From: Candidatus Aenigmatarchaeota archaeon
GTDB lineage: Archaea > Aenigmatarchaeota > Aenigmatarchaeia > QMZP01
Length of the DNA stretch: 64,000 bases
NCBI GenBank assembly: GCA_016198585.1
Contig: JACQII010000016.1
Location: 21,078 to 85,077 of the forward strand
Direction: 5' to 3'
Positions 44,448 through 62,600 of this stretch are shown piece after piece. Position 1 is the stretch's first letter; each line of letters opens with the position of its first letter. Below the pieces are notes generated by a model. That model had not been told where the DNA came from. It saw only the letters and a list, made by a program, of their open reading frames with translations, and did no database searches. A program made the translations under genes and the position numbers.

Positions 44448-45224
44448 TCAGATCAGCGCGCGGAGCTCCTTGCCTTTCGCGAGCGACCACTGGATGGCCT
44501 GCTCGACCTCTTCGAGCGTGAACGGCTCCGCCTCGCCTTTCTGGAGGGCGGCGACGTGGCCGTCGTCCATGGTGCTCACGGTGAGCCGGGCGGTGGCGGC
44601 GTCCTCCTCCTCGCGGGTCGGGTCGACCAGGAGGTAGGCGGGCTGCCTGCCGATCTTATGGACGGTGACGGCAATGGGCGTGGCGGTCATCGGCAGCTTC
44701 TCCGTCGTCTTGGTGAACCAGTCCACCCGGGTCCCGTCGTAGGCCGGGAAGACCGCGTAGCTCAGTGCAGCGATGGAGGCGAGCGAGCAGGCGTCGATCA
44801 GGTTGCCGTCGTGGTTGAGGATCTGGAGGTCGATGAACACGGTCCAGACCTTCTCCTTGGGCGTGATGCAGAGCTTCTTGGCGTCGATCGCCCCCGATTC
44901 TCGAATCCCGCGGTCGACGACCCGGGACAGCTCAATGGCGTTCTCCCGCGGCGGCCCCAGCTCGAAGTCCGGGGAAGCGATCGGCGACAGCTCAGCCGAG
45001 ACGATGAGCGTCCCCTCGTCGGGTTTGTCCGGGAACGGCGTCCCGACGTCGAGTTTGACGCCGGCGATCACCTCTGTGTTGCCCATCCGTACCCGGGCCG
45101 ACCCTTCGGCCTTGCTGATGGGGTTCTTCTCGATCGTGACCGGCCTGAAGTCCGCGAGGCCGCGCTTGTCGAGCCGCGTCCCCTTGGCCGCGAGCCCGAT
45201 CATGTACTCTTCCTGGAGATTCAT
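44448..45224 (-). CDS. rrp42: Exosome subunit Rrp42
   Basis: RLDKRGLADFR, AEGSA, PFPDKPDEG, ELSRVVDRGIRES, HDGNLIDA. Confidence 0.95.
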   Translation of the reverse strand: MNLQEEYMIGLAAKGTRLDKRGLADFRPVTIEKNPISKAEGSARVRMGNTEVIAGVKLDVGTPFPDKPDEGTLIVSAELSPIASPDFELGPPRENAIELSRVVDRGIRESGAIDAKKLCITPKEKVWTVFIDLQILNHDGNLIDACSLASIAALSYAVFPAYDGTRVDWFTKTTEKLPMTATPIAVTVHKIGRQPAYLLVDPTREEEDAATARLTVSTMDDGHVAALQKGEAEPFTLEEVEQAIQWSLAKGKELRALI

Positions 45225-45901
45225 AGTTTCCACCTCTTCCGGAGGGCTTCGACCTGGAGGGCGTAGATCTTCTCGCAGCCCTGGAGCGACAGCTGGATAA
45301 TGCCCTTGATGTCCTGGGGCGGCAGGTCGCCGTCCATCTGGAGCAGCGTGATCTTCTTCGTGCGGGGCATGCAGGCGATCGGCATGTCCGCCGCGGTCGC
45401 CTCTTCCTCCTTGCCGGCGAGGTCGAGGACGTAGTGGTCGCCGATCTTGCCCGACGCGACCGAAGCGACGAGGTCGCGCATCGGGATGCCCGCGTCGGCG
45501 AGCGCGACCGAGGCCGCGTTGATGCCCGCGGTCCTGGTCCCGGCGTCTGCCTGGATGATGTTGATGAACACGTCGATGACGGTCTTCGGGAACTCCTCCA
45601 GGAAGATCGCGGGCTGCAGCGCGTGGGTCGTGACTAGTGAGATTTCAGTCGACCGACGGGAGGGACCTGGCCGCACGCGCTCGTCGGTGGAGAAGGGGAC
45701 CATCTGGTAGACGCAACGGAGGACGCCCCGGTCAGACCGTTGCTTGTGCTTCGGGAGGTATTCTCGCGGGCCGTAGACCCCGGCAACTGCCACGGTCCTG
45801 CCCATGCGCACCATGGCCGACCCATCTGCATTTTTGATCACGCCGGCGACGATCTCCATCGGCCGGATTTCGTCGACCTTGCGGCCGTCGTCGCGCTTCA
45901 T
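45221..45901 (-). CDS. rrp41: Exosome subunit Rrp41
   Basis: RDDGRKVDEIRP, GVYGPRE, PFSTDER, QADAGTR. Confidence 0.95.
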   Translation of the reverse strand: MKRDDGRKVDEIRPMEIVAGVIKNADGSAMVRMGRTVAVAGVYGPREYLPKHKQRSDRGVLRCVYQMVPFSTDERVRPGPSRRSTEISLVTTHALQPAIFLEEFPKTVIDVFINIIQADAGTRTAGINAASVALADAGIPMRDLVASVASGKIGDHYVLDLAGKEEEATAADMPIACMPRTKKITLLQMDGDLPPQDIKGIIQLSLQGCEKIYALQVEALRKRWKL

Positions 45902-46602
45902 TCCAGGACCTCCTGGCTCTCCTGACTCTTGTCAATCGTGACGCCGAGCATGGCCGAGATCTTGTCCGTCAGCCCTTCGGCAGCGGCCTCGCGCTCAATG
46001 AGTCCGATCACCTCGATGCACTTCTCCATGCCCTCGCCCTCGAGCCAGATCAGGCCGTTCTGGCCGGCGTTGATCTTGCAGCCCGTCCCGTCCTTGATGA
46101 TGTTGATCATCGAGCCCTGCTTGCCGATCAGGCGGGGGACCTTGGTCGGACTGATCCGCACGAGGCGGCCGCCGTGGAACTTGCGGGCCTTGATGTCCTG
46201 CATGGACAGGTAGATAGACGTCCCCTGAAGGCCGTTGACTTTCGCGTAGATGATGTCGCCGACGTCATAGTAGCGGTTGAGGCTGGTTTTCCGGGTGTCG
46301 ATGTACTCCTTCACCCCGGCGAGGGGGAGGAACGCGTCGGACGGAGCGTGCACGTCAACCACCCAGCCGTTGTTCTGGATGTCGGTGACCTTGCCGATGA
46401 CCATGTCGCCTTCGCGCGGGATGTAGGCCCCGCTCAACGGGACGACAGAGATCGCGCGGCCGTTGATGCTGACCAGGCCGACCCGCTTCGAGAGGATAGC
46501 CTCATTCTCGCGGAACGTGTTCCGGCCAGGGAGGAACTCCATCGATTCGACAATGATGTCTCCCGGGATGACCACATCCCGCTCCTTCTTGAGCAATTCC
46601 AT
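45898..46602 (-). CDS. rrp4: Exosome RNA-binding subunit Rrp4
   Basis: VIPGD, YIPREGDMVIG S1 domain, KVPRLIGKQGSM KH domain, GQNGLIW. Confidence 0.95.
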   Translation of the reverse strand: MELLKKERDVVIPGDIIVESMEFLPGRNTFRENEAILSKRVGLVSINGRAISVVPLSGAYIPREGDMVIGKVTDIQNNGWVVDVHAPSDAFLPLAGVKEYIDTRKTSLNRYYDVGDIIYAKVNGLQGTSIYLSMQDIKARKFHGGRLVRISPTKVPRLIGKQGSMINIIKDGTGCKINAGQNGLIWLEGEGMEKCIEVIGLIEREAAAEGLTDKISAMLGVTIDKSQESQEVLE

Positions 46603-46789
46603 GATGTCTCCATGTGCGGGTTCTTGATGATGTACAGAGAGAAAGCACTCCCGCACGTCTTTTATTTTCTCCTGTCTTGAGCGGATATAGGGGGTTTGGG
46701 TATTTAAAGGTTGCTGTCCCCCGGACGCCGGCGCGCCGGCCGGGAGGTCCGGTCCGACAACGTCAGGTTCATGACGCCGACCGCAAGCG

Positions 46790-46801
46790 TATATAAAGTT
46801 T
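46790..46801 (+). promoter_or_regulatory. Archaeal TATA box facing into the island
   Basis: TATATAAAG with purine-containing upstream flank (CGCAAG); ~200 nt before the first island ORF. Confidence 0.55.
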
Positions 46802-46999
46802 CATGGGTAACAGAAATATCCACTCGGGGATAGTGAAACCGATGTGCATCGCTCATGTTCCCACACCATTCACGTCGCGCTGAGCATCCGCTGAGCGTTC
46901 CCGCACGGGCACAGGTCCTGCGCAGTTGAACTGCTCCCCACCTGGACCGCCGAGAAGACTCCCGCGCGACAGGTCCCTGTCTTTCGTGAGCACCATACC

Positions 47000-47152
47000 A
47001 TGAGTCCGCGTTCCCGGCTCGTGTGCTGGATCCTCTTCTGCCTGTTCTGCTTCGGGTTCCACTGGTGGGCAGTCGTCTACGGCTGGCTCATCCACACGGC
47101 GACCGTCGACCTGGACGCCGACCAGGAACCTCCTCCCCCGTCCACCGAGTGA
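47000..47152 (+). CDS. Small membrane protein (50 aa)
   Basis: Below the ORF-track cutoff. MSPRSRLVCWILFCLFCFGFHWWAVVYGWLIHTATVDLDADQEPPPPSTE; its stop abuts the SD of the next gene. Confidence 0.5.
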   Translation: MSPRSRLVCWILFCLFCFGFHWWAVVYGWLIHTATVDLDADQEPPPPSTE

Positions 47153-47164
47153 AAGGAGTTGCCC

Positions 47165-47401
47165 ATGCATCGCCTTCGCGTGTTTCTCTCCTCCCTTCGT
47201 GCGTTCTTCTCCCGTGCCCACCGGGGCTTCCGCCTCGCCATCTGCACGTCCATGGGCGCGCTGATCCTCACCTGGGCGTGGCTGTTTGACGTCGTCGCCC
47301 GCGAGGACCTGCTCGACTTCGTCCTCGGGCTCGCGTTCTTCCTGACCGTGTCATACATTGCCACGAGCCCGGCCGTCATGCGGCGGACGGGAGGAGAATG
47401 A
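47165..47401 (+). CDS. Small membrane protein
   Basis: AAGGAG SD; two hydrophobic segments. Confidence 0.5.
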   Translation: MHRLRVFLSSLRAFFSRAHRGFRLAICTSMGALILTWAWLFDVVAREDLLDFVLGLAFFLTVSYIATSPAVMRRTGGE

Positions 47402-47402
47402 G

Positions 47403-47720
47403 ATGAACCAGACGCATCTGCTCGAGCTGCTCACGACGGCCGCTGCGTCCGGCTCCGACGCGGAACTTGGGAGCATCCACGCCACGCTCCGGAGCGCGTG
47501 TGGCCACCAGCATCCCGTCGTCGGGAACTTCATGAGCCGCCTTTTCGACAGCGCCACCAAGCACCGGCCGGACCTGCTCCCGACCCTGTTCCCGGCCTTC
47601 GCCCTCCTCTGCGGCGACCGGGACCCCGCGTTCGATTTCGCCGACATCGACTGGACACTCATGCCGCCGGCCTCCGAGAAGCCGCACAAGCCGAGGAGGA
47701 AGGCGAGGAAGGACACGTGA
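47403..47720 (+). CDS. Hypothetical protein
   Basis: GGAGGAG SD; strong GC3 bias; packed operon spacing. Confidence 0.55.
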   Translation: MNQTHLLELLTTAAASGSDAELGSIHATLRSACGHQHPVVGNFMSRLFDSATKHRPDLLPTLFPAFALLCGDRDPAFDFADIDWTLMPPASEKPHKPRRKARKDT

Positions 47721-47722
47721 CC

Positions 47723-47974
47723 ATGAACCGACCCTGGACACTCGAGGGCTATGACACCTTCAGCAGCGAGTGGTACATGCTCCCGGGCGAGTACGCGACC
47801 GAGGAAGCGGCCCGGGCCGCGGCAACGGCGCGCCTCCTGGAGCTGGAGGAGACCCAGCCGACCAGGACCAGCGGCGGCCAGGCCGAGACGGGCATCCAGG
47901 ACCGCGTCTACGTCGTGCGGCCCGACGGCTCCAAGTACCGCTTCACCCTGCCCACCCTCCCCGACAGACCCTGA
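47723..47974 (+). CDS. Small hypothetical protein (YDTFS...SGGQ...GIQDRV)
   Basis: Strong GC3 bias; starts 2 nt after the previous stop. Confidence 0.6.
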   Translation: MNRPWTLEGYDTFSSEWYMLPGEYATEEAARAAATARLLELEETQPTRTSGGQAETGIQDRVYVVRPDGSKYRFTLPTLPDRP

Positions 47975-47991
47975 CAGGAAAGGAGACGACC

Positions 47992-48783
47992 ATGCGCTCG
48001 CACATCCTCGACCCTGGCAAGCCCGTCCGCCTCTCCCGCGGCGACCCGCGCGACACCGACGGCGTGAAGGAAGGTGATGCCCGCGAGGAGCTCGAAGCCC
48101 TGCGCGAGCAGATCATCGCCCTGCAGAACCGCCTCTTCTTCGACGGCCGGCGCGCCCTCTTGCTCGTGCTCCAGGGCATGGACACCAGCGGCAAGGACGG
48201 GACCGTGCGCCGCGTGCTCTCGGGCGTCACGCCCCAGGGCATGCAGGTCCACGCCTTCAAGGTCCCGACCCCCGAGGAGCGGGCTCACGACTTCCTCTGG
48301 CGTGTCCACGCCCGCGTTCCGGGCAAGGGGATGCTGGGCGTCTTCATCAGGTCGCACTACGAGGACGTGCTGGTGCCGCGGGTGAACGGCGACCTCGATG
48401 ACGACCAGGTCGAGGGCCGGTTCGACCAGATCAACGACTTCGAAGCGACCCTCGTCGGGACGGGCACGACGGTCGTCAAGTGCTTCCTCCACATCAGCCG
48501 AGCGGAGCAGGCTGAGCGGCTCCGGGAGCGGCTGCGGGAGAAGCCCTGGAAGTTCAACCCCGGCGACCTGGCCGTCCGCGGCCAGTGGGACGCGTACCTG
48601 GCGGCCTACGAGGCCCTGCTGGCCCGCTGCACGACGCACCATGCGCCGTGGACGGTCGTGCCGGCGGACCGCAAGTGGTTCCGCGACCTCGTCGTCGCCC
48701 GCCTGCTGGTCCAGACCCTGGAGGGGATGGACCTCCGGTTCCCCAAGCCGGCGTTCGACCCGGCTGCCATCGTCATCCGCTGA
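47992..48783 (+). CDS. ppk2: Polyphosphate kinase 2 (class III-like)
   Basis: LQGMDTSGKDGT Walker A, FKVPTPEERAHDFLWR, RSHYEDVL, QAERLRER, VPADRKWFR. Confidence 0.92.
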   Translation: MRSHILDPGKPVRLSRGDPRDTDGVKEGDAREELEALREQIIALQNRLFFDGRRALLLVLQGMDTSGKDGTVRRVLSGVTPQGMQVHAFKVPTPEERAHDFLWRVHARVPGKGMLGVFIRSHYEDVLVPRVNGDLDDDQVEGRFDQINDFEATLVGTGTTVVKCFLHISRAEQAERLRERLREKPWKFNPGDLAVRGQWDAYLAAYEALLARCTTHHAPWTVVPADRKWFRDLVVARLLVQTLEGMDLRFPKPAFDPAAIVIR

Positions 48784-48793
48784 GGAGGAGACC

Positions 48794-49057
48794 ATGAAGG
48801 ACAAGACCCTGACCGACAAGATGGTGGACGTCACCGTCACGGCGCGACGGGGCTGCCTGGAGGAGGTCGTGAGCCGTCTCCGCCAGATCAGCCCTGCCCT
48901 GACCATCACCGACCTGGCTCGCAGCGGACCCGAAGACGACGTCTACTGGACGGTCTCCATCCGCTACCCGGAGGGCCAGTGCATCTCGGTTGCCCTGCGC
49001 TCCGCCCTCGCGGAACTCAGGGCCCGCGGGCTGCTGTATGAGCGTGGCAGGACATAA
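48794..49057 (+). CDS. Small hypothetical protein (possible ACT/ferredoxin-like fold)
   Basis: GAGGAGGAG SD; beta-alpha-beta-beta-alpha pattern by eye only. Confidence 0.5.
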   Translation: MKDKTLTDKMVDVTVTARRGCLEEVVSRLRQISPALTITDLARSGPEDDVYWTVSIRYPEGQCISVALRSALAELRARGLLYERGRT

Positions 49058-49103
49058 GCCAGAAGCGCCCCACGAACCGATCGCGGGGCCAGGGGAGGGA
49101 CCC

Positions 49104-49877
49104 ATGGACATCGACACGGACGAGGCGTGGAAAGAGTACATCAGGACGAGAGACCCGGTGCTCCGCAACCAGCTTGCTGAGCACTACCTGCCCCTGGTGA
49201 GCATCATCGCCGGCAGTCTGGCGCGGACTCTCCCGCGCTCGGTGGATATCGGCGACCTGAACGGCAACGGGACGATCGGCCTGATCGACGCGGTCGAGCA
49301 CTTCGATCCCGACCGGGGCGTGAAGTTCAACACGTACGGGTCACTGCGCATCCGGGGGGCGATGCTTGACGGCCTCAGGAAAGAGGACTGGACTCCGCGC
49401 CTGACCCGCACGCGCCAGAAGCTCCTGAAGGAAGCGGGGCAGGAGTTGTTCGCGTCCCTGCGCCGTCAGCCGACCCACCAGGAACTCGCCGACTTCCTCG
49501 GGATGACCGCGGACGAACTGACGGCACTGCACGCGGAAGCTGAGAGCGCGCAGGTGTTCTCCCTGTTTGACACCTGGACGGCTGGGATGGACGACCAGGA
49601 AGTGGAACGCAAGGACTTCATCCCCGACCCGGGAGAAGGCCCGGAGCAGCAGCTCTTGGACCGGGAGGCGGTGGAGGAGATCCGGAAGCGGATCGGGAAG
49701 GCGTTCCCCCGGACGGACCGCGTGATCACCGATCTGTACTTCTTCGAGGGGTACACGATGCGCCGGATCGCGGACCTCCTGGGGCTGACGGAGTCGAGGG
49801 TATGCCAGCGCCTCAGCGCGGTGGCGACGAGGCTGGAGGAAATCTTCCTGTCCCTGAAGGAGAAGGAGGCCAGATGA
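49104..49877 (+). CDS. FliA/WhiG-family RNA polymerase sigma factor
   Basis: RNQLAEHYLPLV, DLNGNGTIGLIDAVEHFDPDRGVKFNTYGSLRIRGAMLDGLRKEDW (region 2), PTHQELA (region 3), YTMRRIADLLGLTESRVCQ (region 4). Confidence 0.92.
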   Translation: MDIDTDEAWKEYIRTRDPVLRNQLAEHYLPLVSIIAGSLARTLPRSVDIGDLNGNGTIGLIDAVEHFDPDRGVKFNTYGSLRIRGAMLDGLRKEDWTPRLTRTRQKLLKEAGQELFASLRRQPTHQELADFLGMTADELTALHAEAESAQVFSLFDTWTAGMDDQEVERKDFIPDPGEGPEQQLLDREAVEEIRKRIGKAFPRTDRVITDLYFFEGYTMRRIADLLGLTESRVCQRLSAVATRLEEIFLSLKEKEAR

Positions 49878-50776
49878 GCGCGACGTCGAACTACCTGGAA
49901 GGCGCCAAGGTCCTGATGGTGCGGCGGAACCGCATCCGGCCGTTCCCCGGCCAACCGCGCACCTTCTTCGACCAGACGTACCTCGAGGCCCTGGCCAAGA
50001 GCATCGCAACGGTCGGGCAGAAGGTGCCCATCATCGTCCGCCGGATCACCGGCGATCCCGGCCACGACTACGAGCTCGTGGACGGGCAGCAGCGCTGGCA
50101 CGCGTGCGGCATGATCGGCAAGGACTCCATGATCGCCATCGTCACGGAGCTGGACGACCCGGAGGACCAGTTCACGTCGTCGATGGTGGCCAACTACAGC
50201 CGTTCGCCGCATACGGTCATGGACACCGCCCACGCCCTCAAGCGCATGCTGGTCAGCGGCCGCACGGAAGCGGACATCGCGGCGGTGCTCGGGAGGTCCC
50301 AGGGATGGGTGTCCAAGCACCTGTGCATCCTGCGCCTCTGCCCCGAGGTGCAGCAGCTGCTGGATCCCACGCGCCCCAAGGACAAGCGGCTGTCCTTCAC
50401 CGTCGCATACCTCCTGTCCGAACTCCCGCCAGAGCGGCAGGTGGAGGCCGCCCGCGTGATCGAGTCCCGGGGCATGCTGTCCCACGAGGCACGGACCCAT
50501 GTCCGGCTTGCGGCAGTGAGGCTGGGCGTCCAGAGGGGGAGAACGCGCACACGGAGCGACGAAGCCCGCAAGCTGATGGAGTTCCTGCAGCGAGTGGAGA
50601 GGGATGCCCGGATCTTCCTGGCGATGCCTCGTCGAACTGTCGCGCAGCTGTTCGCCCACCGCAAGCCGGAGGATGCCGAGAAGATCGGCCGGGCGATGGA
50701 TGAGGCTATCGCCAGGCTCACCGAGCTCCGCGACGTCGTGAAGCGTGACCTCCCCGCCCAGCGCGAGTCCGCGTGA
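49874..50776 (+). CDS. ParB/Spo0J family protein
   Basis: IRPFPGQPRTFFD, LAKSIATVGQKVPIIV, YELVDGQQRWHA, HTH TEADIAAVLGRSQGWVSKHL. Confidence 0.9.
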   Translation: MSATSNYLEGAKVLMVRRNRIRPFPGQPRTFFDQTYLEALAKSIATVGQKVPIIVRRITGDPGHDYELVDGQQRWHACGMIGKDSMIAIVTELDDPEDQFTSSMVANYSRSPHTVMDTAHALKRMLVSGRTEADIAAVLGRSQGWVSKHLCILRLCPEVQQLLDPTRPKDKRLSFTVAYLLSELPPERQVEAARVIESRGMLSHEARTHVRLAAVRLGVQRGRTRTRSDEARKLMEFLQRVERDARIFLAMPRRTVAQLFAHRKPEDAEKIGRAMDEAIARLTELRDVVKRDLPAQRESA

Positions 50777-50837
50777 TCAACAGCAGGTACGAAGTCGTGA
50801 ACAGTCGTGAACAACCCCACCAGACGAGGAAGAACCC

Positions 50838-51206
50838 ATGAGAATCCTGCCGACCATCGTGCTCGGCGTGTGCTTCGCGGCGGTCACCGCCTGCGGAAAG
50901 GAAGAGCTGACGCCCGAGGAGTTCACCGCGCTTGCCAAGGACCACGAGCAGGCCTTGTCCTCGGAAGCGGCCCAGATCGCCTACGATCGTGAGCGCGACC
51001 GGGTGAACGCCCTTCTCGAGGAGGCCCGGGAGGAGGGAGGCGTGGTCGACCTGGAGAACGGCACGGCCATCGTCAGGCACCGGCTGGGTGTGAAGCACGA
51101 CACTCCCGAAGCGGCAACCGCGGCGCTGGAAGAAGCCCGGGACGCCTGGGCCGGAACCCGGAAGGTCACGATCACGAAGAGCACCGTGGTCACGGGGCAC
51201 ACCTGA
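50838..51206 (+). CDS. Predicted lipoprotein
   Basis: MRILPTIVLGVCFAAVTA|C lipobox-type signal. Confidence 0.6.
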   Translation: MRILPTIVLGVCFAAVTACGKEELTPEEFTALAKDHEQALSSEAAQIAYDRERDRVNALLEEAREEGGVVDLENGTAIVRHRLGVKHDTPEAATAALEEARDAWAGTRKVTITKSTVVTGHT

Positions 51207-51296
51207 GCGTCTGTCTCTCGGGGGCCGGTCGGCCTCCTGATCCAGTACGAATTCCCTTCCCCGTCGCCCGGGCTCTGATCCGGAGGAAGAGGCAGC

Positions 51297-52040
51297 ATGA
51301 AGTTCCAGATCGCCGGCGGCTCGATCGCGGGCCGCGACCACCGCCACCCGCTGAATCCCCACAACAACAAGGACGCGTTTGCCTGGCGAACCAGTGAGGG
51401 CGCCACGGCCATCGTCGTCGCCGACGGCTGCAGCAGCGGCAGCCACAACGAGGTCGGCGCCAAGCTCGGGGCGCGCCTGATGGTCGAAGCCCTGCTCCGC
51501 CAGTGGCGGCGTTCCCCGGACTCCGCGGACATCCTGCTCGAGCAGGCCATGCAGGACCTGCTCGCCCAGATCCGGGTCCTGGCCCACGCCATGGGCGGCA
51601 GCTTCAGCGAGACCATCGGCGACTGCTTCCTCTTCACCCTCGGCGGCGCCGTCCTGACGGAGGACCGGTCGCTGGTCTTCTCCGTCGGCGATCCGCTCAT
51701 CATCGTCAACGGCGATGTCGTCCGGTCGGGCGGCTACCCGGGCAACGAACCCCCATACCCGGCCTACGCCCTCCTGGGCGATGAACCGGAGATGAACCGG
51801 CAGGTGGTCAGCGGCGTCGAGTCCGTCCTGATCGGCACGGACGGCGCCGAGGACTTCCGGGCCGCGGAAGGCGCGCATGTGGGCACTGCCCTGATCGGGC
51901 CGATCAGCCAGTTCTGGACGCAGGAACAGTACTTCGCGAACCCGGACAGCGTCCGCCGCACCCTCGCGCTCGCGGCGGCCGCGGCGGGCAGCCCGCTCCA
52001 CGACGACACCACCCTGGTCGTCGCCCGCCGGTGGTCGTAA
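51297..52040 (+). CDS. PP2C-like protein phosphatase (TerY-P triad type)
   Basis: GRDH, NNKDA, VADGCSS, VGD, GTDG, DDTT metal-binding motifs. Confidence 0.88.
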   Translation: MKFQIAGGSIAGRDHRHPLNPHNNKDAFAWRTSEGATAIVVADGCSSGSHNEVGAKLGARLMVEALLRQWRRSPDSADILLEQAMQDLLAQIRVLAHAMGGSFSETIGDCFLFTLGGAVLTEDRSLVFSVGDPLIIVNGDVVRSGGYPGNEPPYPAYALLGDEPEMNRQVVSGVESVLIGTDGAEDFRAAEGAHVGTALIGPISQFWTQEQYFANPDSVRRTLALAAAAAGSPLHDDTTLVVARRWS

Positions 52041-52077
52041 GCACCGGTCCCGGGCGACGACGCGGAGGACAGCGACC

Positions 52078-53934
52078 ATGGACGTGTACATCGGCGGCGT
52101 GAAGCACACGCTGCGCCCCCAGGACTCTGTCGGCAAGGGCGGCGAGGCCGACGTCTACCGCATCAGCGGCAGTCGGGTGGTGAAGGTCTTCAAGGCGCCG
52201 GACCACCCGGACTACGCCAACGAGCCCGGGGAGCAGGCCGCAGCCCGACAGCGCCTCGCCGAGCATCAGGACAAGCTGCCGGCGTTCCCGCGCGGCCTCC
52301 CCGCCCGCGTGATCGCCCCGGAAGAACTCGCCACCTCGCGCGACCACCGCATCGTGGGCTACGCCATGCCCTTCGTGGACGGGGCGGAAGTCCTCTCGAT
52401 GCTGAGCGAGCGGTCGTACCGGGCGGCCGGCTTTCCCACCAGCAGGGTGCTGGAGGTCTTCACCGACCTCCACGGGTCCGTCGCCGGCCTGCACCAGAAA
52501 GGCGTGGTGATCGGGGACTGCAACGACCTGAACGTGCTGGTCAAGGGGAGCCAGGCCTTCCTGATCGACGCGGACAGCTTCCAGTTCGGCCGCTTCCTCT
52601 GCCGCCTGTTCACCGCCCGGTTCGTCGACCCGCTCCTGTGCGATCCGAGGGCCCACGCCCCGATGCTCATCAAGCCGCACACCGAGCTGTCGGACTGGTA
52701 TGCCTTCACCGTCATGGTGATGCAGTCGCTGCTGTTCGTCGACCCCTACGGCGGGGTCTACCGCCCGAGGAAGGGCAAGCCGGTCCCGCACGGGCAGCGG
52801 CCGCTGCTGCGCATCACGGTCTTCCACCCGGAGGTCAGGTATCCGAAGCCCGCTGTCCACTATCGCGTCCTCCCGGACGACCTGCTGCACCTCTTCCACC
52901 AGACCTTCGAGAAGGACCAGCGGCAGCCGTTCCCGGTCGGTCTCCTCCAGCACATGCGCTGGACGGCCTGCGCGCAGTGCGGCCTTGAGCACGCCCGTTC
53001 CAGCTGCCCGCAGTGCGGGGTCACCCCGCCCGCGGCGGTCGTGAAGGAGGTGATCCGCGGCACCGTGAAATCCCGACGCATCTTCACCACCGAGGGCCTC
53101 ATCCTCTTCGCGGCCCACCAGGGCGGGAAGCTCCGCTGGCTGGTCCACGAGAAAGGTGCAATCCGTCGGGAGGACGGCGCCCCTGCCGTGCAGGGCGACC
53201 CCACGCCGCAGATGCGCTTCCGCATCCGCGGCGACGCGACCCTCATCGGTGCTGGCGACCGGCTCCTGACCCTCCTGCCGGGCCAGCCGGCGTCCACCGT
53301 CATCGTCGACCAGTACGGGCAACTCCCGGTGTTCGACGCCAACGAGCAGCGGACGTTCTGGCTCCGGGACGGCAACCTGCTCCGCGAGGGCAGGTTCGGC
53401 CCCGAGACTGTCGGGACCGTGCTCGCGCGCCAGACCCTGTTCTGGGCCGGCCCATCCTTCGGGTTCGGCTTCTACCGTGCGGGCCAGCTCTGCGTCGGCT
53501 TCGTGTTCGATGCCGACGCCCGCGGGATCAACGACTCCGTGCAGCTGCCGCCCATCCGGGGCCAGCTGGTGGATTCGACCTGCGTGTTCGGGAAGGATTG
53601 CTGCTGGTTCCTGGTCTCCACTCGCCACCAGGGCCGGACCGTCAACCAGTGCGTGCAGATCAGCCGCCGGGGCGCTGTCCTGGCGACCGCCGAAGCCGAG
53701 GCCGGCGACGGCTCGTGGCTGGGCAGCCTGCGCGGCAAGTGCGGTGGCACGCCCCTGTTTTCGGCGACCGACGACGGGATCGTCCGGATCGAGGCCGCCG
53801 GAACAGCGTTGCAGGTGGTCCGGGAGTTCCCGGACACGGAGCCGTTCGTGGATGCCGGCTCCCACCTCTTCCCCGCCAAGGAAGGCATCTACGTCGTCGG
53901 CCGGCAGGAGATCCACCTGCTGACCATCGGGTAG
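52078..53934 (+). CDS. Ser/Thr kinase-like protein (TerY-P type) with zinc ribbon and beta-rich C-terminal domain
   Basis: GKGGEADVY, VVKVF, IGDCNDLNVLV catalytic loop, IDADSFQ; CAQC...CPQC. Confidence 0.85.
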   Translation: MDVYIGGVKHTLRPQDSVGKGGEADVYRISGSRVVKVFKAPDHPDYANEPGEQAAARQRLAEHQDKLPAFPRGLPARVIAPEELATSRDHRIVGYAMPFVDGAEVLSMLSERSYRAAGFPTSRVLEVFTDLHGSVAGLHQKGVVIGDCNDLNVLVKGSQAFLIDADSFQFGRFLCRLFTARFVDPLLCDPRAHAPMLIKPHTELSDWYAFTVMVMQSLLFVDPYGGVYRPRKGKPVPHGQRPLLRITVFHPEVRYPKPAVHYRVLPDDLLHLFHQTFEKDQRQPFPVGLLQHMRWTACAQCGLEHARSSCPQCGVTPPAAVVKEVIRGTVKSRRIFTTEGLILFAAHQGGKLRWLVHEKGAIRREDGAPAVQGDPTPQMRFRIRGDATLIGAGDRLLTLLPGQPASTVIVDQYGQLPVFDANEQRTFWLRDGNLLREGRFGPETVGTVLARQTLFWAGPSFGFGFYRAGQLCVGFVFDADARGINDSVQLPPIRGQLVDSTCVFGKDCCWFLVSTRHQGRTVNQCVQISRRGAVLATAEAEAGDGSWLGSLRGKCGGTPLFSATDDGIVRIEAAGTALQVVREFPDTEPFVDAGSHLFPAKEGIYVVGRQEIHLLTIG

Positions 53935-54028
53935 AAGGGAAGGTACACAAGAGCACACGGTCAGGTTTCGCTTCTGTTCTCGTTCTGTTCCCTGTTTTCC
54001 TCTCCTCTTTTCGAGGTCATCACCAGTC

Positions 54029-55120
54029 ATGAAGACGTTGCCCGTTCCCCCCTTCTTCAAGCCGGCCCACGCCGCGGAGTGGGGTTTCAGCCCCAACCAG
54101 CAGCAGCTGGCCGACGAGGCTGCGAAGTGGCGGAAGCAGCACGGCATCAGGCCGTCCGGCTCCGACCGCTTCAAGGCTCACCTGCTCATCATCGACGCCC
54201 AGCGCGACTTCTGCTTCCCCCAGGGGACCCTCTACGTGGGCGGCAGGAGCGGCCAGGGAGCGATCGAGGACAACGTCCGGACGGCCCAGTTCATCTACCG
54301 GAACCTGGGCCTGATCACGGACATCTCCACCACGTTCGACACCCACTTCGCCTTCCAGATCTTCTTCCCGTGGTTCTGGCAGGACCAGCAGGGCAACCCG
54401 CTGCAGGCCCACACCATGATCAAGCTGGGCGGCAAGGACGGCAGCCGGCTCGACAACGTCGGCCTGGACGGGAAGCTCCTGCACGAGGGCGTCCAGCCCA
54501 ACCCGGCCATGGCCCGGTGGCTCTGCAACGGCAACGTGGCCTGGCTCCAGAAGCAGGCGCACTTCTACTGCCAGCAGCTCGACGCGGGCGGCAAGTACGT
54601 CCTCTACCTCTGGCCGCCCCACTGCCTCCTGGGCAGCGACGGCCACGCCCTGGCCGGCGTGATCCACGAGGCGCGGTTCTTCCACAGCCTCTGCCGGTTC
54701 TCGCAGTCCACGGGCGAGGTCAAGGGCGGCCACCCGTTGACGGAGAACTACTCCGTCCTCGCTCCCGAGGTCCTGATGCGGTGGGACGGCAGGCCGCTCG
54801 CGCAGCGGAACACCGCGTTCCTGGAGACGCTGATGGCGGCGGACGCCGTCCTCGTCGCCGGCCAGGCGGCCAGCCACTGCGTCAAGTCCTCCATCGCCGA
54901 CCTTCTGGACCAGCTCGTGGCGAAGGACCCCGAGCTGGCGAAGAAGGTCTTCATCCTCCGGGACTGCATGTCCGCGGTGGCGGTTCCGGACGGTGCCGGC
55001 GGCTTCGCGGCGGACTTCACGCCGCAGGCCGAGGAAGCCCTGGAGAAGTTCGCCGCCGCCGGCATGAACGTGATCCGCTCCACCGACCCGGTGGACAGCT
55101 GGCTCACGGTCCCGGCCTGA
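54029..55120 (+). CDS. Nicotinamidase-like cysteine hydrolase (long form)
   Basis: IIDAQRDF (Asp), FDTH and WPPHC (metal), VKG (Lys), AGQAASHCV (Cys). Confidence 0.85.
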   Translation: MKTLPVPPFFKPAHAAEWGFSPNQQQLADEAAKWRKQHGIRPSGSDRFKAHLLIIDAQRDFCFPQGTLYVGGRSGQGAIEDNVRTAQFIYRNLGLITDISTTFDTHFAFQIFFPWFWQDQQGNPLQAHTMIKLGGKDGSRLDNVGLDGKLLHEGVQPNPAMARWLCNGNVAWLQKQAHFYCQQLDAGGKYVLYLWPPHCLLGSDGHALAGVIHEARFFHSLCRFSQSTGEVKGGHPLTENYSVLAPEVLMRWDGRPLAQRNTAFLETLMAADAVLVAGQAASHCVKSSIADLLDQLVAKDPELAKKVFILRDCMSAVAVPDGAGGFAADFTPQAEEALEKFAAAGMNVIRSTDPVDSWLTVPA

Positions 55121-55157
55121 CCCTGTCCCTTTGTTCCCTGTTCCACGGAGACCAACC

Positions 55158-55961
55158 ATGACCAGTTCCAGCGCCGCTCCCAACGTGGGAGCTCTCCTCA
55201 CCGGGGCGGGCCTGTCGGCCCAGGCCGCCCAGGTCCTCACCATCCCTGACCTGGGTGCCCGGATCCAGGCCGGGATGGGAATCAAGGTGGACAACGTCCC
55301 GGCCAGCGAGGTGACCCTCGTGACGATGCTGGTCGACGACTCGGGGTCGATCAGCGCCGCGGGCAACACCAGGGTGGTGCGCGACGGCCACAACATGGTG
55401 CTCGATGCCCTCGGCAAGGCCAAGAGGCGGGACGGCATCCTGGCCCATACCCTGTACCTGAACGGCACGGTGCTGTTCCCGTACGCCCCGCTGGACCAGG
55501 CGGTGCGGATGGACGACAGCAACTACGACCCGAACCTGGGCACGCCGCTCTACGACCAGGCGGTGGTGCTCCTCGGGACCGTGCTGGCGAAGGCCCAGCA
55601 GTTCGAGGACGCGGGCGTGCCCGTCCGGACGGTGACCCTGATCGTCACCGACGGCCAGGACGAGCACTCGTCCGCGGCCCACGGCGGACGTGGCACCACC
55701 GCGGCGGACGTGGCCAAGGTGGCGAGGGACATGCTCCGCAAGGAGACCCACATCATCGCCGCCATGGGCATCGACAACGGGGCCACGGACTTCCGGCGGG
55801 TGTTCGCGGAGATGGGGATCCAGGACAAGTGGATCCTCACCCCCGGCAACACGCAGCAGGAGATCCGCCGGGCCTTCCTGCTGTTCTCGCAGTCCGCGGT
55901 CCGCGCCAGCCAGGGCGCGGCCCCGTTCTCGCAGTCGGCGATGGGCGGCTTCGGCAAGTGA
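55158..55961 (+). CDS. vWA-domain protein (TerY-like)
   Basis: Complete MIDAS: DDSGS, GTPLYD, VTDG. Confidence 0.85.
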   Translation: MTSSSAAPNVGALLTGAGLSAQAAQVLTIPDLGARIQAGMGIKVDNVPASEVTLVTMLVDDSGSISAAGNTRVVRDGHNMVLDALGKAKRRDGILAHTLYLNGTVLFPYAPLDQAVRMDDSNYDPNLGTPLYDQAVVLLGTVLAKAQQFEDAGVPVRTVTLIVTDGQDEHSSAAHGGRGTTAADVAKVARDMLRKETHIIAAMGIDNGATDFRRVFAEMGIQDKWILTPGNTQQEIRRAFLLFSQSAVRASQGAAPFSQSAMGGFGK

Positions 55962-56057
55962 CCGCCTGAGCGCGCGCTCGTGAGCGAATGGCGGGGGGAG
56001 GGTCCTGCATCGGGCGGGCCCTCTCCCCGTCACCTTTCCTCTGGAAGGAGGGATACC

Positions 56058-56804
56058 ATGGATCATCCGATCCGCACCGTCCCCTCCCTCTACGTCCAGA
56101 GGACAGGGGAACAGTCCGTCAAGGTCGCGCTCACTCTCACCCGGGCGCGCGACCGCGTCGTCGTCCGGCTCACCGGCGGTTGCGGCGCCATGGCCGCTGC
56201 CGATGCGGCCGGGATGGCCGACCTGTTCTGCGCCGCCTTCTCCGGCTTCGGCGGCGCGATGCTGTTCGGGGGGACGCGGATGGTCGCCAGGGCGGACCCG
56301 AGGGTCGTCGTCCCCGGCATCACGGAGATTCCGCCCCTCGTGCGCGCGCAGAACCCCTGCGTCATCCTCGGCGTCGTCCCGAAGACCGGCGACCTCCGGC
56401 TCGCGGAGATCGGGATGGTGGTGTCGGACGATGCTGCAGGCTACGTGACGATCGTCCATCCGGACCAGGACGTCTGCGTGGTGGTCCAGCCCTCCGCGGA
56501 CGGGATCGCCACCTGGGACGACGAGGCGCGCGTGTGCCGGGAGATCGCCACCGAACTGCGCACGTCCGCCGGGTGGCAGTCCGTCCTCATCGCCTACAAC
56601 GGCGGCGGGACCACCGAGCGGGAAATCCGCGCGTGGGCACCGCACGCCCCCGTGATCCTGATCAAGGGCAGCGGCCGCGCGGCCGACTGCCTTGGCAGCG
56701 ATGCCGCGTTCCTCGCCGCACATCCGCAAGTCAGGGCGGTCCCGAAAGACCGCCAGGCTCTGCGCACCGCACTGATCGTGTGCGGTGTCCTCCCTGTTTC
56801 GTGA
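56058..56804 (+). CDS. SLOG-superfamily protein (TRPM/LSDAT-like), paralog 1
   Basis: RLTGGCGAM, FGGTR, LGVVP, AYNGGGTTEREI, PVILIKGSGRAAD. Confidence 0.72.
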   Translation: MDHPIRTVPSLYVQRTGEQSVKVALTLTRARDRVVVRLTGGCGAMAAADAAGMADLFCAAFSGFGGAMLFGGTRMVARADPRVVVPGITEIPPLVRAQNPCVILGVVPKTGDLRLAEIGMVVSDDAAGYVTIVHPDQDVCVVVQPSADGIATWDDEARVCREIATELRTSAGWQSVLIAYNGGGTTEREIRAWAPHAPVILIKGSGRAADCLGSDAAFLAAHPQVRAVPKDRQALRTALIVCGVLPVS

Positions 56805-56828
56805 GTCCCCCATTCTGGAGTGCGTTCC

Positions 56829-57629
56829 ATGTCCACGCCCTTGACCGTGACTGCTCCCGGCAACAAGGTCCACCTCACCGTGATGAACGCGGACGACGGC
56901 CTGCCGACCGCCTTCGCCCTGATGGGCACGCGCGCGGCGGAGAAGGTCGCCATCCGCATCACCGGTGGCTGCAAGAACATGGGCCCGGAGGACAAGACGG
57001 CGATGCTCGGATACTTCGCCGCCGCGTTCGCGGGCTACCGCGGCGTCGCCTGGTCGGGCGGCACCCGCCAGCTCACGCCGGCCGGGGAGCTCGACCCGAT
57101 GGTCACCGACGTGCCCGGCGTCATCGCCGCCGGCAACGAGGGCTGCGTGGCCCTTGGCACGGTCCCGCGGACCGAGTTCCTTACCCTGCAGGGCGACTCC
57201 CGCCTCGTCCTCGACCAGTGGGGAGCTCTCCCGAACCCCACCATGTCCGGCATCCTGATCGTGCAGAAGGATCCGGATGGGACCCTGGGCTGGGACGGCG
57301 ACCTGAGCGTCTACGTCCAGCTTATGGAGAACTGGAAGCAGTACGCGGGCTTCGCCGCCCTGGGCCTCGTCGTCTGGAACGGCGGCGACGTGACCCTCGA
57401 CGAGATCGTCCTCGCCGCCGCGCGCGGCTGGCCCGTGTTCATCGTCCGCGGTTCCCAGCGCATCGCGGATGCGGTCCTGGCCGCGGTCGAGCGCAACGGG
57501 CTGGTCGCGTACGAGCGCCGCCCGGGCGCGGTGGCGATCCCGAACAAGAGCGTCATCGTCCCCGTGGAGAAGGGCGACCCGGCGACGCTCCGGGCCGCTC
57601 TCCTCACGCACCAGTTCATCGCCGGGTAG
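56829..57629 (+). CDS. SLOG-superfamily protein (TRPM/LSDAT-like), paralog 2
   Basis: RITGGCKNM, SGGTR, LGTVP, VWNGGDVTLDEI, PVFIVRGSQRIAD. Confidence 0.72.
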   Translation: MSTPLTVTAPGNKVHLTVMNADDGLPTAFALMGTRAAEKVAIRITGGCKNMGPEDKTAMLGYFAAAFAGYRGVAWSGGTRQLTPAGELDPMVTDVPGVIAAGNEGCVALGTVPRTEFLTLQGDSRLVLDQWGALPNPTMSGILIVQKDPDGTLGWDGDLSVYVQLMENWKQYAGFAALGLVVWNGGDVTLDEIVLAAARGWPVFIVRGSQRIADAVLAAVERNGLVAYERRPGAVAIPNKSVIVPVEKGDPATLRAALLTHQFIAG

Positions 57630-57774
57630 GGCGGACCCCTCGCCTTCCCCTGGCGGAGCAGGGGACTGGACGCCCCGGGGGCTGCTGTTCGCGAAGCTCG
57701 ACACGCATGCGCGCGAGCGGGCGGCGCAGCGGCAGCTCCCGGGACCCCGAGGCCGCTTTTCGGAGTATCTGACC

Positions 57775-59019
57775 ATGAAGACCGACATGCCGATCATCAA
57801 CTCGCTGCTGGACGTCGACTTCTACAAGTTCACCATGGGCCAGCTGGTGTTCCACCGGCACCGGGACGTGAAGGTGGCCTACGGCTTCACCTGCCGGACC
57901 AAGGGTGTGCACCTCGCGCGGGAGATCGACCTCGGGCAGCTCCGGGAGGAACTCGGACACGTCCGCAGCCTGCGGTTCGGGACCAGTGACCTGCACTACC
58001 TGCGCGGGACCAACGAGTACGGGGAACGCATGTTCCGGGAGGACTACCTGACGTTCCTCCGCGGCCTGCGGCTCCCGAAGTTCCACATCGACTCCACCCC
58101 CGAAGGCGACCTGGTGATGTTGTTCCCGGGGCGCTGGTGCGAGGCGATCTACTGGGAGACCATCGCCCTGGCGATCGTCAACGAGCTCTACGCGCGCTCG
58201 CTGCTGCGCGGGATGGGCACGTTCGCCCGGAAGGCCGTGCATGCCGAAGGCATCCTCCGGCTGCGGCAGAAGATCGCGGCCCTGCGGGATGCGGACTTCA
58301 CCTTCAGCGACTTCGGGACGCGGCGCCGCTTCTCCGGGGCGTGGCAGCGCGAGGTCGTGGAGGCTGTCGCGGCGGAGCTGCCCCGCCAGTTCCGCGGCAC
58401 GTCGAATACGCTGCTGGCCATGCAACTCAGCGTGCTGCCGATGGGCACCTCTGCCCACGAGCTGCCGATGGTGCTGGCTGCCGCGACCGACGACGGGCAC
58501 GACGACGTGGTCCGCGCTTCCCACAACCGGGTCCTGCAGGAGTGGTGGCAAGAGTACGGGGAGGGCCTCTCCATCGCCCTCGCGGACACCTTCGGCACGG
58601 ACTTCTTCCTCAGCGACTTCCAGCGCGAACAGGCTGTCGCGTGGAAGGGCGTGCGCCAGGACTCAGGGGACCCGATCGCGATCGGGGACAAGGTCGTCGC
58701 GTTCTACGAGCGGCACGGGATTGATCCGCGCGGGAAGCTGCTCGTGCCGAGCGACGGCCTCGACCTCGAGGCGATGCTCCGGATCGCGGACCACTTCCGT
58801 GGCCGGATCCGGGTCAGCTTCGGGTGGGGCACCAACCTCACCAACGACCTCGGACTGCCTGCCCTGTCGATCGTCATCAAGGCCGTGCAGGCAAACGGCA
58901 GGGGGACGGTCAAGCTGAGCGACAACCTCGCGAAGGCGACCGGGAGCCCCGCGGACATCGACCGGTACAAGCGGATCTTCGGCTACACCGGCACGCTCAC
59001 TGCGGCGTGCCGCTATTAG
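57775..59019 (+). CDS. pncB: Nicotinate phosphoribosyltransferase
   Basis: LLDVDFYKFTM, DFGTRRR, GTSN, GTSAHE, DTFGT, RQDSGDP, SDGL, FGWGTNL, KLSD. Confidence 0.93.
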   Translation: MKTDMPIINSLLDVDFYKFTMGQLVFHRHRDVKVAYGFTCRTKGVHLAREIDLGQLREELGHVRSLRFGTSDLHYLRGTNEYGERMFREDYLTFLRGLRLPKFHIDSTPEGDLVMLFPGRWCEAIYWETIALAIVNELYARSLLRGMGTFARKAVHAEGILRLRQKIAALRDADFTFSDFGTRRRFSGAWQREVVEAVAAELPRQFRGTSNTLLAMQLSVLPMGTSAHELPMVLAAATDDGHDDVVRASHNRVLQEWWQEYGEGLSIALADTFGTDFFLSDFQREQAVAWKGVRQDSGDPIAIGDKVVAFYERHGIDPRGKLLVPSDGLDLEAMLRIADHFRGRIRVSFGWGTNLTNDLGLPALSIVIKAVQANGRGTVKLSDNLAKATGSPADIDRYKRIFGYTGTLTAACRY

Positions 59020-59029
59020 GGAGCGATCC

Positions 59030-59959
59030 ATGCGCATCCAGACCTTCAGCATCGTCGTCGGCACGCGGGCGTGCAACGCCCACTGCCCGTTCTGCGTCTC
59101 CAAGATGACCGGCTTCAGCGTCCTCCCCAAGGTAGCAGGGATCAACGAGCCGAACCTCGCGAAGGCGTGCCGGTTGGCCCAGCTGGCCGGCACCACCACG
59201 GTCCTGCTCACTGGCAAGGGGGAGCCCACGCTCTACCCGCGCCAGATCACGCGCTACCTGCAGCTGCTGCAGCCCTGGAACTTCCCCTTCATCGAGCTCC
59301 AGACCAACGGCCTGGAGATCGGCGACCTCGCGACTGGCAGGAATTGTCGGCTGACCTTCGAGGACATCGGGACCTGGAAGCAGCTCGGGCTGAACACCGT
59401 CGCTCTCTCCACGGTCGGCGTCAACGACGGCGCGAATGCGATGGTGTACCGGATGACGTACCCTGACCTGGCGACGACGATCTCGTTCCTCCACTCCCAG
59501 GGCTTCACCGTGCGCCTCTGCGTCATGATGCTGCACGGCGATGTCAGTTCCCCGGCCAATGTGAAGGAGCTGATCAGGTACTGCAAGGACCACGGCGTGG
59601 AACAGCTCAAGATCTCGCCCATCCGCAGGCCTGAGTCGTCGGCGAATGCCGAGGTGTCCGCTTTCGTGCGGGAACGCGGCCTGTCCGAGGAGGAGATCGC
59701 GGCCATCGCGACGTGGCTCGACACCAACGGCACCCGCCTGCTGACGCTGATGCACGGCGCCACGGTCTACGACGTCGCTGGCCAGAACGTCTGCCTCAGC
59801 GACTGCCTGACGGTGGGCGGCGCGGACGACGACGTCCGGACCCTGATCTTCTACGCCGACGGCCGCCTGGCCTACGACTGGCAGTACCCCGGCGCGGTCC
59901 TGCTCGGCGGCCTCGAGCCGCCCGAGCAGGCAGCTGCCGCAACGGAGCCCACGCCATGA
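59030..59959 (+). CDS. Radical SAM protein of unknown function
   Basis: CNAHCPFC cluster motif, LTGKGEPTL, LQTNG. Confidence 0.88.
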   Translation: MRIQTFSIVVGTRACNAHCPFCVSKMTGFSVLPKVAGINEPNLAKACRLAQLAGTTTVLLTGKGEPTLYPRQITRYLQLLQPWNFPFIELQTNGLEIGDLATGRNCRLTFEDIGTWKQLGLNTVALSTVGVNDGANAMVYRMTYPDLATTISFLHSQGFTVRLCVMMLHGDVSSPANVKELIRYCKDHGVEQLKISPIRRPESSANAEVSAFVRERGLSEEEIAAIATWLDTNGTRLLTLMHGATVYDVAGQNVCLSDCLTVGGADDDVRTLIFYADGRLAYDWQYPGAVLLGGLEPPEQAAAATEPTP

Positions 59960-60288
59960 AGTTCCGCAACCTGACCCCGCACGAGGTGGTCGTGCAGCTG
60001 TCCGACGGCACCACGCGGGCCTTCCCCTCCGAGGGCGTCGCCCGATTGGATGTCCTGCCCGAGTCCCCTTTCGTGGTCGACGGCATCCCGATCCTGCCGG
60101 CGGTCCGGTACGGCTCGCCGGTCGACCTGCCCCCGGCGGCCGAGGGGACGATGCTCATCGTCTCGCTCATCGTGGCCCAGGCGCTGCCTGGCCGGAACGA
60201 CCTGCTCGCGCCTGCGAGCGACCTCGCCAACGCGATCCGGGGACCGGACGGCATGATCGTCGCTGTCCGGGCCCTGCGGCGCGGCTGA
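59956..60288 (+). CDS. Small NLTPH-motif protein
   Basis: MKFRNLTPHEV...FPSEGVARL...LPPAAEGTMLIVS...RNDLLAP; coupled to the radical SAM gene (ATGA). Confidence 0.7.
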   Translation: MKFRNLTPHEVVVQLSDGTTRAFPSEGVARLDVLPESPFVVDGIPILPAVRYGSPVDLPPAAEGTMLIVSLIVAQALPGRNDLLAPASDLANAIRGPDGMIVAVRALRRG

Positions 60289-60299
60289 CAGATAAGGAG

Positions 60300-60601: not shown

Positions 60602-60605
<4 letters not shown>
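60300..60605 (+). CDS. Small basic hypothetical protein
   Basis: AAGGAG SD; stop overlaps the nadE start. Confidence 0.5.
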
Positions 60606-62596
<1,991 letters not shown>

Positions 62597-62600
62597 TCCC

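Follow-up and report, generated by a model that had tools for sequence, protein, structure and literature searches.

The window analysed here is a 64,000-nucleotide stretch of the genome of a Candidatus Aenigmatarchaeota archaeon (assembly GCA_016198585.1, contig JACQII010000016.1, positions 21,078 to 85,077 of the forward strand), and it carries a bacterial-type island of about 16 kb in which a gene for a sigma factor of the FliA/WhiG type overlaps a gene for a ParB-like protein. The host is represented by a metagenome-assembled genome (MAG) of 0.94 Mb in 16 contigs, 76% complete, and the contig in question, with the island in its middle, measures 183 kb. The host chromosome is archaeal (DPANN, Aenigmatarchaeota). 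The two genes at the centre of the analysis are the following:

49104-49877, plus strand: FliA/WhiG-type sigma-70 family protein of 257 amino acids (aa), assigned from Pfam, NCBIfam, conserved positions and PDB sequence matches
49874-50776, plus strand: ParB/Noc/KorB-fold protein of a rare subfamily, 300 aa, assigned from Pfam, NCBIfam and an AlphaFold2 model

The original prediction, made from the letters alone, had described a full-length sigma factor with regions 2, 3 and 4, and profile searches bear this out. Pfam places Sigma70_r2 (5e-13), r3 (1.5e-8) and r4 (7e-8) in one polypeptide from which region 1.1 is absent, the r2-r3-r4 make-up that marks FliA/WhiG proteins, and the NCBIfam model FliA_WhiG TIGR02479 gives 191.5 bits against a cut-off of 189.6, a small margin; the scores do not come up to the NCBIfam equivalog models for WhiG and for FliA. 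Among solved structures, the closest relatives are WhiG 6pfj (8e-43) and FliA 6pmi and 1rp3, while database relatives reach 46% identity at most, and the sigma branch measures 1.7-1.9 substitutions per site in the tree against a median of 0.2. In 119 FliA-family relatives, 50 positions show conservation of 90% or more, and the window sigma keeps 44 of these, including the block GLI.A...FD...G.KF.TY...RIRGA..D.LR...W.PR and the recognition helix ESRV.Q; the departures at near-invariant positions are R38S, P181E, L201F, Y213F, E221R and H237L. Read from its sequence, the gene is intact, and GGGGAGGG precedes its start. Compared with the E. coli FliA holoenzyme (6pmi), Aquifex FliA-FlgM (1rp3) and actinobacterial WhiG-RsiG (6pfj), the window sigma shares regions 2, 3 and 4 and differs in having no flagellar or developmental regulon, no FlgM or RsiG, no nearby sigma-28 promoter and no bacterial core polymerase, as well as in its long branch and in the region 4.2 changes E221R and H237L. 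No flagellin was found in the 76% complete genome, in agreement with the earlier statement that flagellar genes are lacking, and no FlgM/RsiG anti-sigma partner emerged from Pfam, PHROGs, NCBIfam or PADLOC, in which the small open reading frames (ORFs) near the sigma gene belong to no family. A search for the sigma-28 promoter TAAA-N15-GCCGATAA gave 0 matches in the island versus 0.4 expected, and a scan for generic sigma-70 promoters and intrinsic terminators gave 0 sites.

The ParB gene starts inside the end of the sigma gene, the sigma stop codon overlapping the ParB ATG as ATGA (...GGAGAAGGAGGCCAGATGAGC), an overlap that the original prediction had reported and that is read directly in the sequence. 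A Shine-Dalgarno motif lies within the sigma 3' end, with GGAGAAGGAGG just 5' of the ParB start. The protein contains ParB_N (9e-14) and HTH_ParB (1.5e-7) by Pfam and scores 92.7 bits against TIGR00180 (cut-off 58.45). Its AlphaFold2 model, built on 17 relatives, has a mean pLDDT of 90, and the best fold matches of this model are Noc 7nfu, ParB 6t1f, 6sdk and 7bnk, and the KorB-KorA co-complex 8qa9 (TM 0.72 on the target); sequence similarity is stronger to Noc/ParB (1e-36) than to KorB (3e-18). In the model the final ~75 residues form long helices in place of the canonical C-terminal (dimerisation) domain. The subfamily is rare: in a search of 5.8 billion proteins, only seven relatives exceeded 30% identity, the top value being 42%.

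The glutamates of box II and box III are both implicated in CTP hydrolysis by ParB biochemistry. PDB entries 7bnr and 7o0n, whose titles name the M. xanthus mutants Q52A and E93A, are part of that work on CTP hydrolysis. Across the 17 aligned subfamily members, the window ParB included, box I (QPR..F[DN]) is kept in all, and box III reads (A/S)N(F/Y).R in all, ANYSR in the window copy, versus EN.QR in canonical ParB, Noc and KorB. The subfamily thus plausibly binds CTP but, with the box III glutamate lost from every member, probably hydrolyses it poorly. Box II reads G(E/Q)RR in the 16 other members, and the window ParB alone carries GQQR (GQQRWH), the change R73Q. The window copy is off consensus at 6 of 40 strongly conserved positions, where other members range from 0 to 10, its branch length of 0.63 is ordinary beside the median of 0.67, and in a star-like tree it groups weakly with two mobile-element copies (87/76). 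Like the ParB/Spo0J and Noc clamps (6sdk, 7bnk, 6t1f, 7nfu), it has an N-terminal CTP-binding fold, a helix-turn-helix (HTH) and the box I QPR, the box II arginines being shared at the level of the subfamily; unlike them, it has no ParA, no parS, an alanine in box III, R73Q and, in the model, a long helical C-terminus.

No ParA is found among the island genes by Pfam, as had been predicted, and the nearest ParA/MinD-like (AAA_31) gene lies ~88 kb away on the contig; a search for parS-like palindromes with arms of at least 8 found none in 46.7-51.3 kb. The window ParB thus stands outside the Type Ia ParABS systems, which are recognised by an adjacent ParA and parS. ParA is absent from every subfamily locus examined; the window ParB is one of a subfamily that is ParA-less in all these loci, and not a partition protein that has lost its ParA. 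One repeat was observed close behind the gene:

50794-50813, plus strand: tandem direct repeat GTCGTGAACA x2, 18 nt past the ParB stop codon

The 10-mer GTCGTGAACA is present 8 times in the 0.94-Mb genome, and the tandem repeat could be a protein-binding site.

Subfamily loci were collected by profile scans of species genomes and metagenomes, which added Patescibacteria, Paceibacterota and several metagenome contigs, and all ORFs of 19 such loci were compared with a sigma profile and then checked with Pfam, the window being the 20th locus. A sigma-domain gene adjoins the subfamily ParB in 6 of these 20 loci, window included, three of the 20 having truncated upstream sequence, as against 0 of 148 ordinary ParB loci (1.1 Mb) with the same sigma profile (Fisher p = 1.4e-6). 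In five loci the two genes share a strand and are -4 to 41 nt apart, and on one subfamily contig a Sigma70_r2 gene is situated 31 nt upstream of ParB. The original prediction had called a sigma28-ParB pair without ParA an odd module; the pairing of a sigma-domain gene with ParB, without ParA, recurs in five other loci and is a real module, not a chance adjacency. The five other loci are as follows:

L160: full-length sigma with regions 2 and 4, 38% identical to the window sigma; ParB 40% identical; flanked by rplJ, rplL and mltG
L025: sigma with regions 2 and 4, 196 aa, 5' of ParB
L166: sigma with regions 2 and 4, 194 aa, 5' of ParB
L162: region 4 only (3301-3939), behind a CxxC-rich, zinc-ribbon-like N-terminus
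L078: RpoD-like sigma, with ParB first and then sigma

The L162 arrangement suggests that the pairing depends on region 4. The sigma partner in L166 additionally has a weak KORA match (E = 0.004, under the cut-off). All ParB-linked sigmas are long-branched, and a tree holding them together is as likely as a free tree (p-AU 0.5); the star-like ParB tree, for its part, does not tell whether the sigma linkage is ancestral.

The wider surroundings of the subfamily are mobile or small-genome ones. One ParB, 36% identical to that of the window, belongs to the early genes of a Mu-type prophage, with gam on one side and gemA/mor on the other; another is part of an element with a tyrosine integrase and an excisionase, a third of a phage-like contig on which a serine recombinase and an Acb2/Tad1-like gene are also found, and further members were found on small-genome bacterial contigs. 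The window ParB resembles the ParB-like early genes of Mu-like transposable phages in being ParA-less, and differs from them in that the Mu-type copy has no sigma partner, whereas transposase, integrase and phage structural genes are all missing from the window island. A scan of viral contigs with the ParB gave no match, and in an annotated phage collection ParB and sigma matches were distant, at 37% identity or less. None of the other sigma-ParB loci contains homologues of the small ORFs of the window. No description of a sigma-ParB module was found in the literature searched, and both the linkage and the ParB subfamily devoid of ParA and of the box III glutamate appear not to have been described previously.

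The sigma-ParB pair belongs to the left operon of the island, whose limits are given by the GC profile and by synteny. The island and the genes that bound it, together with the assigned ORFs around the pair, are the following:

45898-46656, minus strand: Rrp4, archaeal exosome subunit and left flank (Pfam RRP4_S1, ECR1_N, KH; synteny)
~46720-62600, all genes on the plus strand: bacterial-type island, ~16 kb, between rrp4 and NUDIX/SBDS (GC profiles, synteny)
46790-46797, plus strand: TATA-like box TATATAAA, the only such box on the island coding strand; candidate archaeal promoter
47000-47152, plus strand: small hydrophobic ORF, first of the left operon, 50 aa, a called gene in Logan contig L245; no family
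47165-47401, plus strand: small hydrophobic ORF, 78 aa, a called gene in L245, GC3 0.84; no family
47403-47720, plus strand: orphan ORF hypA, 105 aa; no family
47723-47974, plus strand: orphan ORF hypB, 83 aa; no family
47992-48783, plus strand: PPK2-family polyphosphate kinase, 263 aa (Pfam PPK2 2.4e-65; TIGR03709 325 bits, cut-off 247)
48794-49057, plus strand: orphan ORF hypC, 87 aa, directly 5' of the sigma gene; no family and no anti-sigma signature (Pfam, PHROGs, NCBIfam, PADLOC)
50838-51206, plus strand: bacterial-type lipoprotein-like ORF, 122 aa, with a signal peptide and a VTAC lipobox-like motif read from the translation; no family
62721-63200, plus strand: NUDIX hydrolase (Pfam NUDIX), marking where the island ends on the right and preceded by a TATA-like box of its own (TTTTAAT, 62691)
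63197-63892, minus strand: archaeal SBDS/Sdo1, right flank (Pfam SBDS_N, II, C), present in 13 of 13 relatives

Past the lipoprotein-like ORF, the island continues with PP2C, a kinase-like gene, an isochorismatase-like gene, a vWA-like ORF, two SLOG genes, NAPRTase, a radical-SAM gene and NadE. GC is ~0.62 up to 46.7 kb, 0.66-0.70 over 47-62.6 kb and 0.61-0.64 beyond, and around the sigma gene it is 0.66-0.68 versus 0.62. The closest relatives of the PPK2 protein, 55-58% identical, come from diverse bacteria.

On the left of the island, rpl37ae, rrp42, rrp41 and rrp4 are read on the minus strand, and on the right psmA adjoins SBDS. In four related genomes SBDS, rrp4, rrp41, rrp42, L37ae and prefoldin are contiguous, with only 80-160 bp from SBDS to rrp4. 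A NUDIX copy 53% identical to that of the window stands beside SBDS in the same-genus genome G001, so the NUDIX gene is native. In G001 (L043, C9, 5808-7325), SBDS-NUDIX is followed by a low-GC HsdS-like gene (type I restriction specificity) and then by the contig end, and since this gene takes the place of rrp4 there, the SBDS/rrp4 gap seems to be a repeated insertion site in the genus. Both junctions of the island are reproduced by a separate assembly. Logan contig L245 (5,974 bp, run SRR12113384) matches window positions 44876-50812 with 1 mismatch in 5937 bp, encodes an identical sigma protein and carries part of rrp42, rrp41, rrp4, the small ORFs, PPK2, sigma and ParB; Logan contig L246 from the same run carries the nadE end, NUDIX, SBDS, psmA, a CARDB protein, serS and a TrmB gene. 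The island is therefore not contamination or a mis-join, and what the original prediction placed inside an archaeal chromosome is a genuine inter-domain insertion into it.

TFB is present in the host genome, and the only RpoB found in the 76% complete genome is the archaeal split form, which scores under the bacterial rpoB cut-off. As only archaeal RNA polymerase and TFB are there, the sigma factor cannot act as an initiation factor in its host. A scan for AT runs of at least 7 over 46.65-62.72 kb returned, besides the TATATAAA box ~210 nt 5' of the first small ORF, only those on the rrp4 side (46660/46701) and that of NUDIX (62691). The island genes are tightly packed behind Shine-Dalgarno motifs, and read-through from the TATATAAA box is probably the simplest route to expression of the left operon.

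On balance, it is probable that the pair is an imported cassette which at present is a passenger or, at the very most, a pair that binds DNA locally. Sigma and ParB would have formed one pre-assembled, translationally coupled bacterial cassette, its ParB drawn from a ParA-independent subfamily whose bacterial homes appear to be mobile elements and Patescibacteria-like chromosomes, and it would have come in as the left part of a composite ~16-kb island between SBDS/NUDIX and rrp4. In bacteria the pair may, by analogy, serve as a transcription-control unit, in which the ParB-like protein would be a CTP-gated clamp loaded on DNA, with probably weak hydrolysis, and the sigma-type partner, with the region 4 helix-turn-helix as its constant part, would give promoter recognition or contact with RNA polymerase. 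In the archaeon, transcription probably starts from the single TATA-like box of the left edge and reads through, and the pair most likely persists as a still-intact passenger, or at most as DNA-binding proteins acting on the island.

VirB and Noc are ParB-family CTP switches that act as transcription regulators. The same holds for KorB (PDB 8qa8/8qa9), and in KorA-KorB of the IncP plasmid RK2 (8qa8, 8qa9) a ParB-family CTP-dependent clamp and a small HTH partner together constitute a transcriptional repressor. The window pair is similar in that a ParB-fold protein without a dedicated partition role lies beside an HTH-bearing transcription protein, and dissimilar in that the partner is of the sigma-70 family, not KorA, and that no operator sites were identified, the likeness coming from fold and gene order alone. 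Coupling of a ParB to a sigma factor would broaden the theme of CTP switches as transcription regulators.

Several observations weigh against the imported-cassette explanation. None of the island ORFs encodes an integrase, transposase or recombinase, and neither flanking direct repeats or att sites nor a border tRNA target were found at the island; phage structural genes are likewise absent from it. No donor is near enough to be named, sigma, ParB and PPK2 being at most 46%, 42% and 58% identical to any database entry. The recency of the insertion is read solely from the GC difference of ~7 points and from absence in a distant congener, whose SBDS is 70% identical and whose genome is 74% complete. 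That both genes are intact, with an ordinary ParB branch and 44/50 sigma positions kept, fits continued selection as well as it fits recency; because there is no close donor and the congener is distant and incomplete, neither recency nor selection can be read from intactness. The KorA/KorB analogy draws on fold and gene order, with neither a parS-like palindrome nor a sigma-28 promoter beside it. Finally, the other sigma-70 genes of the phylum have adapted to host GC and evolve under purifying selection, so these archaea may have a use for sigma proteins.

This last point leads to the first alternative, according to which the sigma factor has been domesticated and is used by the archaeon, with or without ParB, to control the NAD-salvage/kinase genes of the island or host genes. 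Such a sigma would either bind DNA by itself, repressing or activating genes, or dock as an accessory factor on the clamp of the archaeal RNA polymerase. Castelle et al. (2021) reported sigma-70 genes (fam00359) in DPANN genomes, excluded mis-binning, found no anti-sigma factors and left the function open (PMC8204110), and a 2025 paper described rpoS-like genes in DPANN viruses (PMC12647753). The presence of a sigma factor in an archaeon, the headline of the original prediction, was thus already published, and in our survey 30 of 371 phylum genomes have a sigma-70-family match (E <= 1e-10), three of which pass the FliA_WhiG cut-off. Most of these sigmas are RpoD-like with long extensions and lie among archaeal housekeeping genes at a GC equal to that of their flanks: G012 has three RpoD-like copies within ~7 kb at native GC (L018, C20, 9216-15993), and G027 has one of 835 aa adjoining ribosomal protein genes, also at native GC (L016, C1, 9445-11952). 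In the congeneric pair G012/G322, dN/dS over the sigma regions is 0.23-0.35, a value for an RpoD-like sigma, not for the window type.

The published DPANN sigma-70 genes agree with the window copy in being bacterial-type sigma-70 genes on an archaeal chromosome, with archaeal neighbours and no anti-sigma factor found. The window copy differs from them in being of FliA/WhiG type, coupled to ParB and confined to one genome in a non-ameliorated island. The three FliA-type sigmas of the phylum form no clade. That of G026 nests among Planctomycetota-like sequences (55% identity), and that of G009 (MFH1977805.1; L011, C5, 9477-10307) sits elsewhere in the tree than the G026 and window copies. With a GC of 0.50 in a 0.37-GC neighbourhood of archaeal housekeeping genes, the G009 gene is a single-gene insertion of foreign composition. 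Judged by the tree, the three copies are independent acquisitions of three different origins; a single ancient FliA acquisition in the phylum was considered and is rejected by it. The window sigma is absent from the same-genus genome, and the window ParB from 44 of 46 family genomes, the two weak matches being unrelated; among the genomes compared, both genes are unique to their source genome. By absence from the congener, lack of a clade and GC, the window sigma falls outside the host-adapted, lineage-conserved pattern of DPANN sigma-70.

Domestication therefore appears rather unlikely for the window pair. It gains from the sigma-70 genes of the phylum, with their mostly native GC, their low dN/dS in the congeneric pair and their published presence without known function, and from the window genes themselves, both intact, their coupling preserved and the ParB rate ordinary. 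It loses in that the window sigma shares no line of descent with the native-looking archaeal sigmas, that the pair occurs in one genome only in DNA that is not GC-ameliorated, and that the bacterial core-binding residues are retained with no remodelling of the sigma. Additionally, R73Q in ParB is unique, the arginine patch being otherwise kept in 16 of 17 members, and the palindrome and sigma-28 scans found no binding sites.

A bolder form of a working pair is distinctly doubtful. In it, sigma and ParB would be a self-contained, polymerase-independent DNA-control module still working in the archaeon and governing the NAD-salvage/kinase island; a hydrolysis-poor, CTP-gated ParB clamp would be recruited or licensed by a DNA-reading head made of sigma regions 4/2, and the module would keep working there because no bacterial core enzyme is needed. 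If this were true, a bacterial device for transcription control would have been transplanted in working order from one domain of life to another, and the module would answer what sigma proteins do in DPANN archaea.

It is very improbable that the archaeon delivers the sigma factor, with or without ParB, into a bacterial host or partner, where it would reprogram transcription through the bacterial core polymerase. The sigma does keep bacterial core-binding and promoter-recognition positions for which an archaeon has no use, and the host genome, with 0.94 Mb and a completeness of 76%, is of a small, symbiont-like kind and holds several bacterial-type islands. However, the translations of sigma and ParB reveal no signal peptide or recognisable secretion tag, the island has no secretion apparatus, and retention of those residues is equally expected of a recently arrived passenger. 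Known DPANN hosts are, moreover, mostly archaea.

That sigma and ParB are unrelated passengers with no joint function anywhere is similarly hard to credit. Such an explanation could point to the 14 of 20 subfamily loci without a sigma neighbour, to the varied type of the partner (FliA-like, short, region 4 only or RpoD-like) and to a ParB tree that resolves no sigma-linked clade. It is countered by the enrichment over ordinary ParB loci, by the shared strand and narrow gaps in five loci, and by L160, where both partners are full-length and 38% and 40% identical to the window pair. Lastly, a contaminating or chimeric bacterial block, to which the GC step of ~7 points, the bacterial gene content, the Shine-Dalgarno use and an MAG of 16 contigs might seem to point, has next to no likelihood, given archaeal core genes on both sides within one 183-kb contig, flanks that are the two halves of a gene order contiguous in relatives, and single-run Logan contigs that cross both junctions at 99.98% identity.

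With the imported cassette as the favoured explanation, the locus adds a well-verified case to the published but unexplained bacterial sigma factors of DPANN archaea, and it indicates that such genes reach the phylum repeatedly and independently. The more novel part is the genetic linkage of a distinct ParB subfamily with sigma-70-family genes, seen in bacteria, in mobile elements and in Patescibacteria-like genomes.

A few minor observations concern the rest of the window and genome. Between the radical-SAM gene and nadE, a stretch of 642 bp (59960-60601) with no assigned gene has an AGGAG-ATG start (MKIIKKRQQH...) and high GC. A second high-GC (0.65-0.74) bacterial-type island is present in the same genome (G000), on contig C15 at ~1-21000 (L001), with an ECF-size sigma of 164 aa (C15:12832-13326, minus strand), HerA/VirB4-like ATPases, a C5 DNA methyltransferase and a GHKL-type ATPase. 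Two tRNA genes of the window, at 8431-8541 (111 nt) and 33660-33775 (116 nt), were detected by Rfam and not by ARAGORN, and they are probably intron-bearing archaeal tRNAs.

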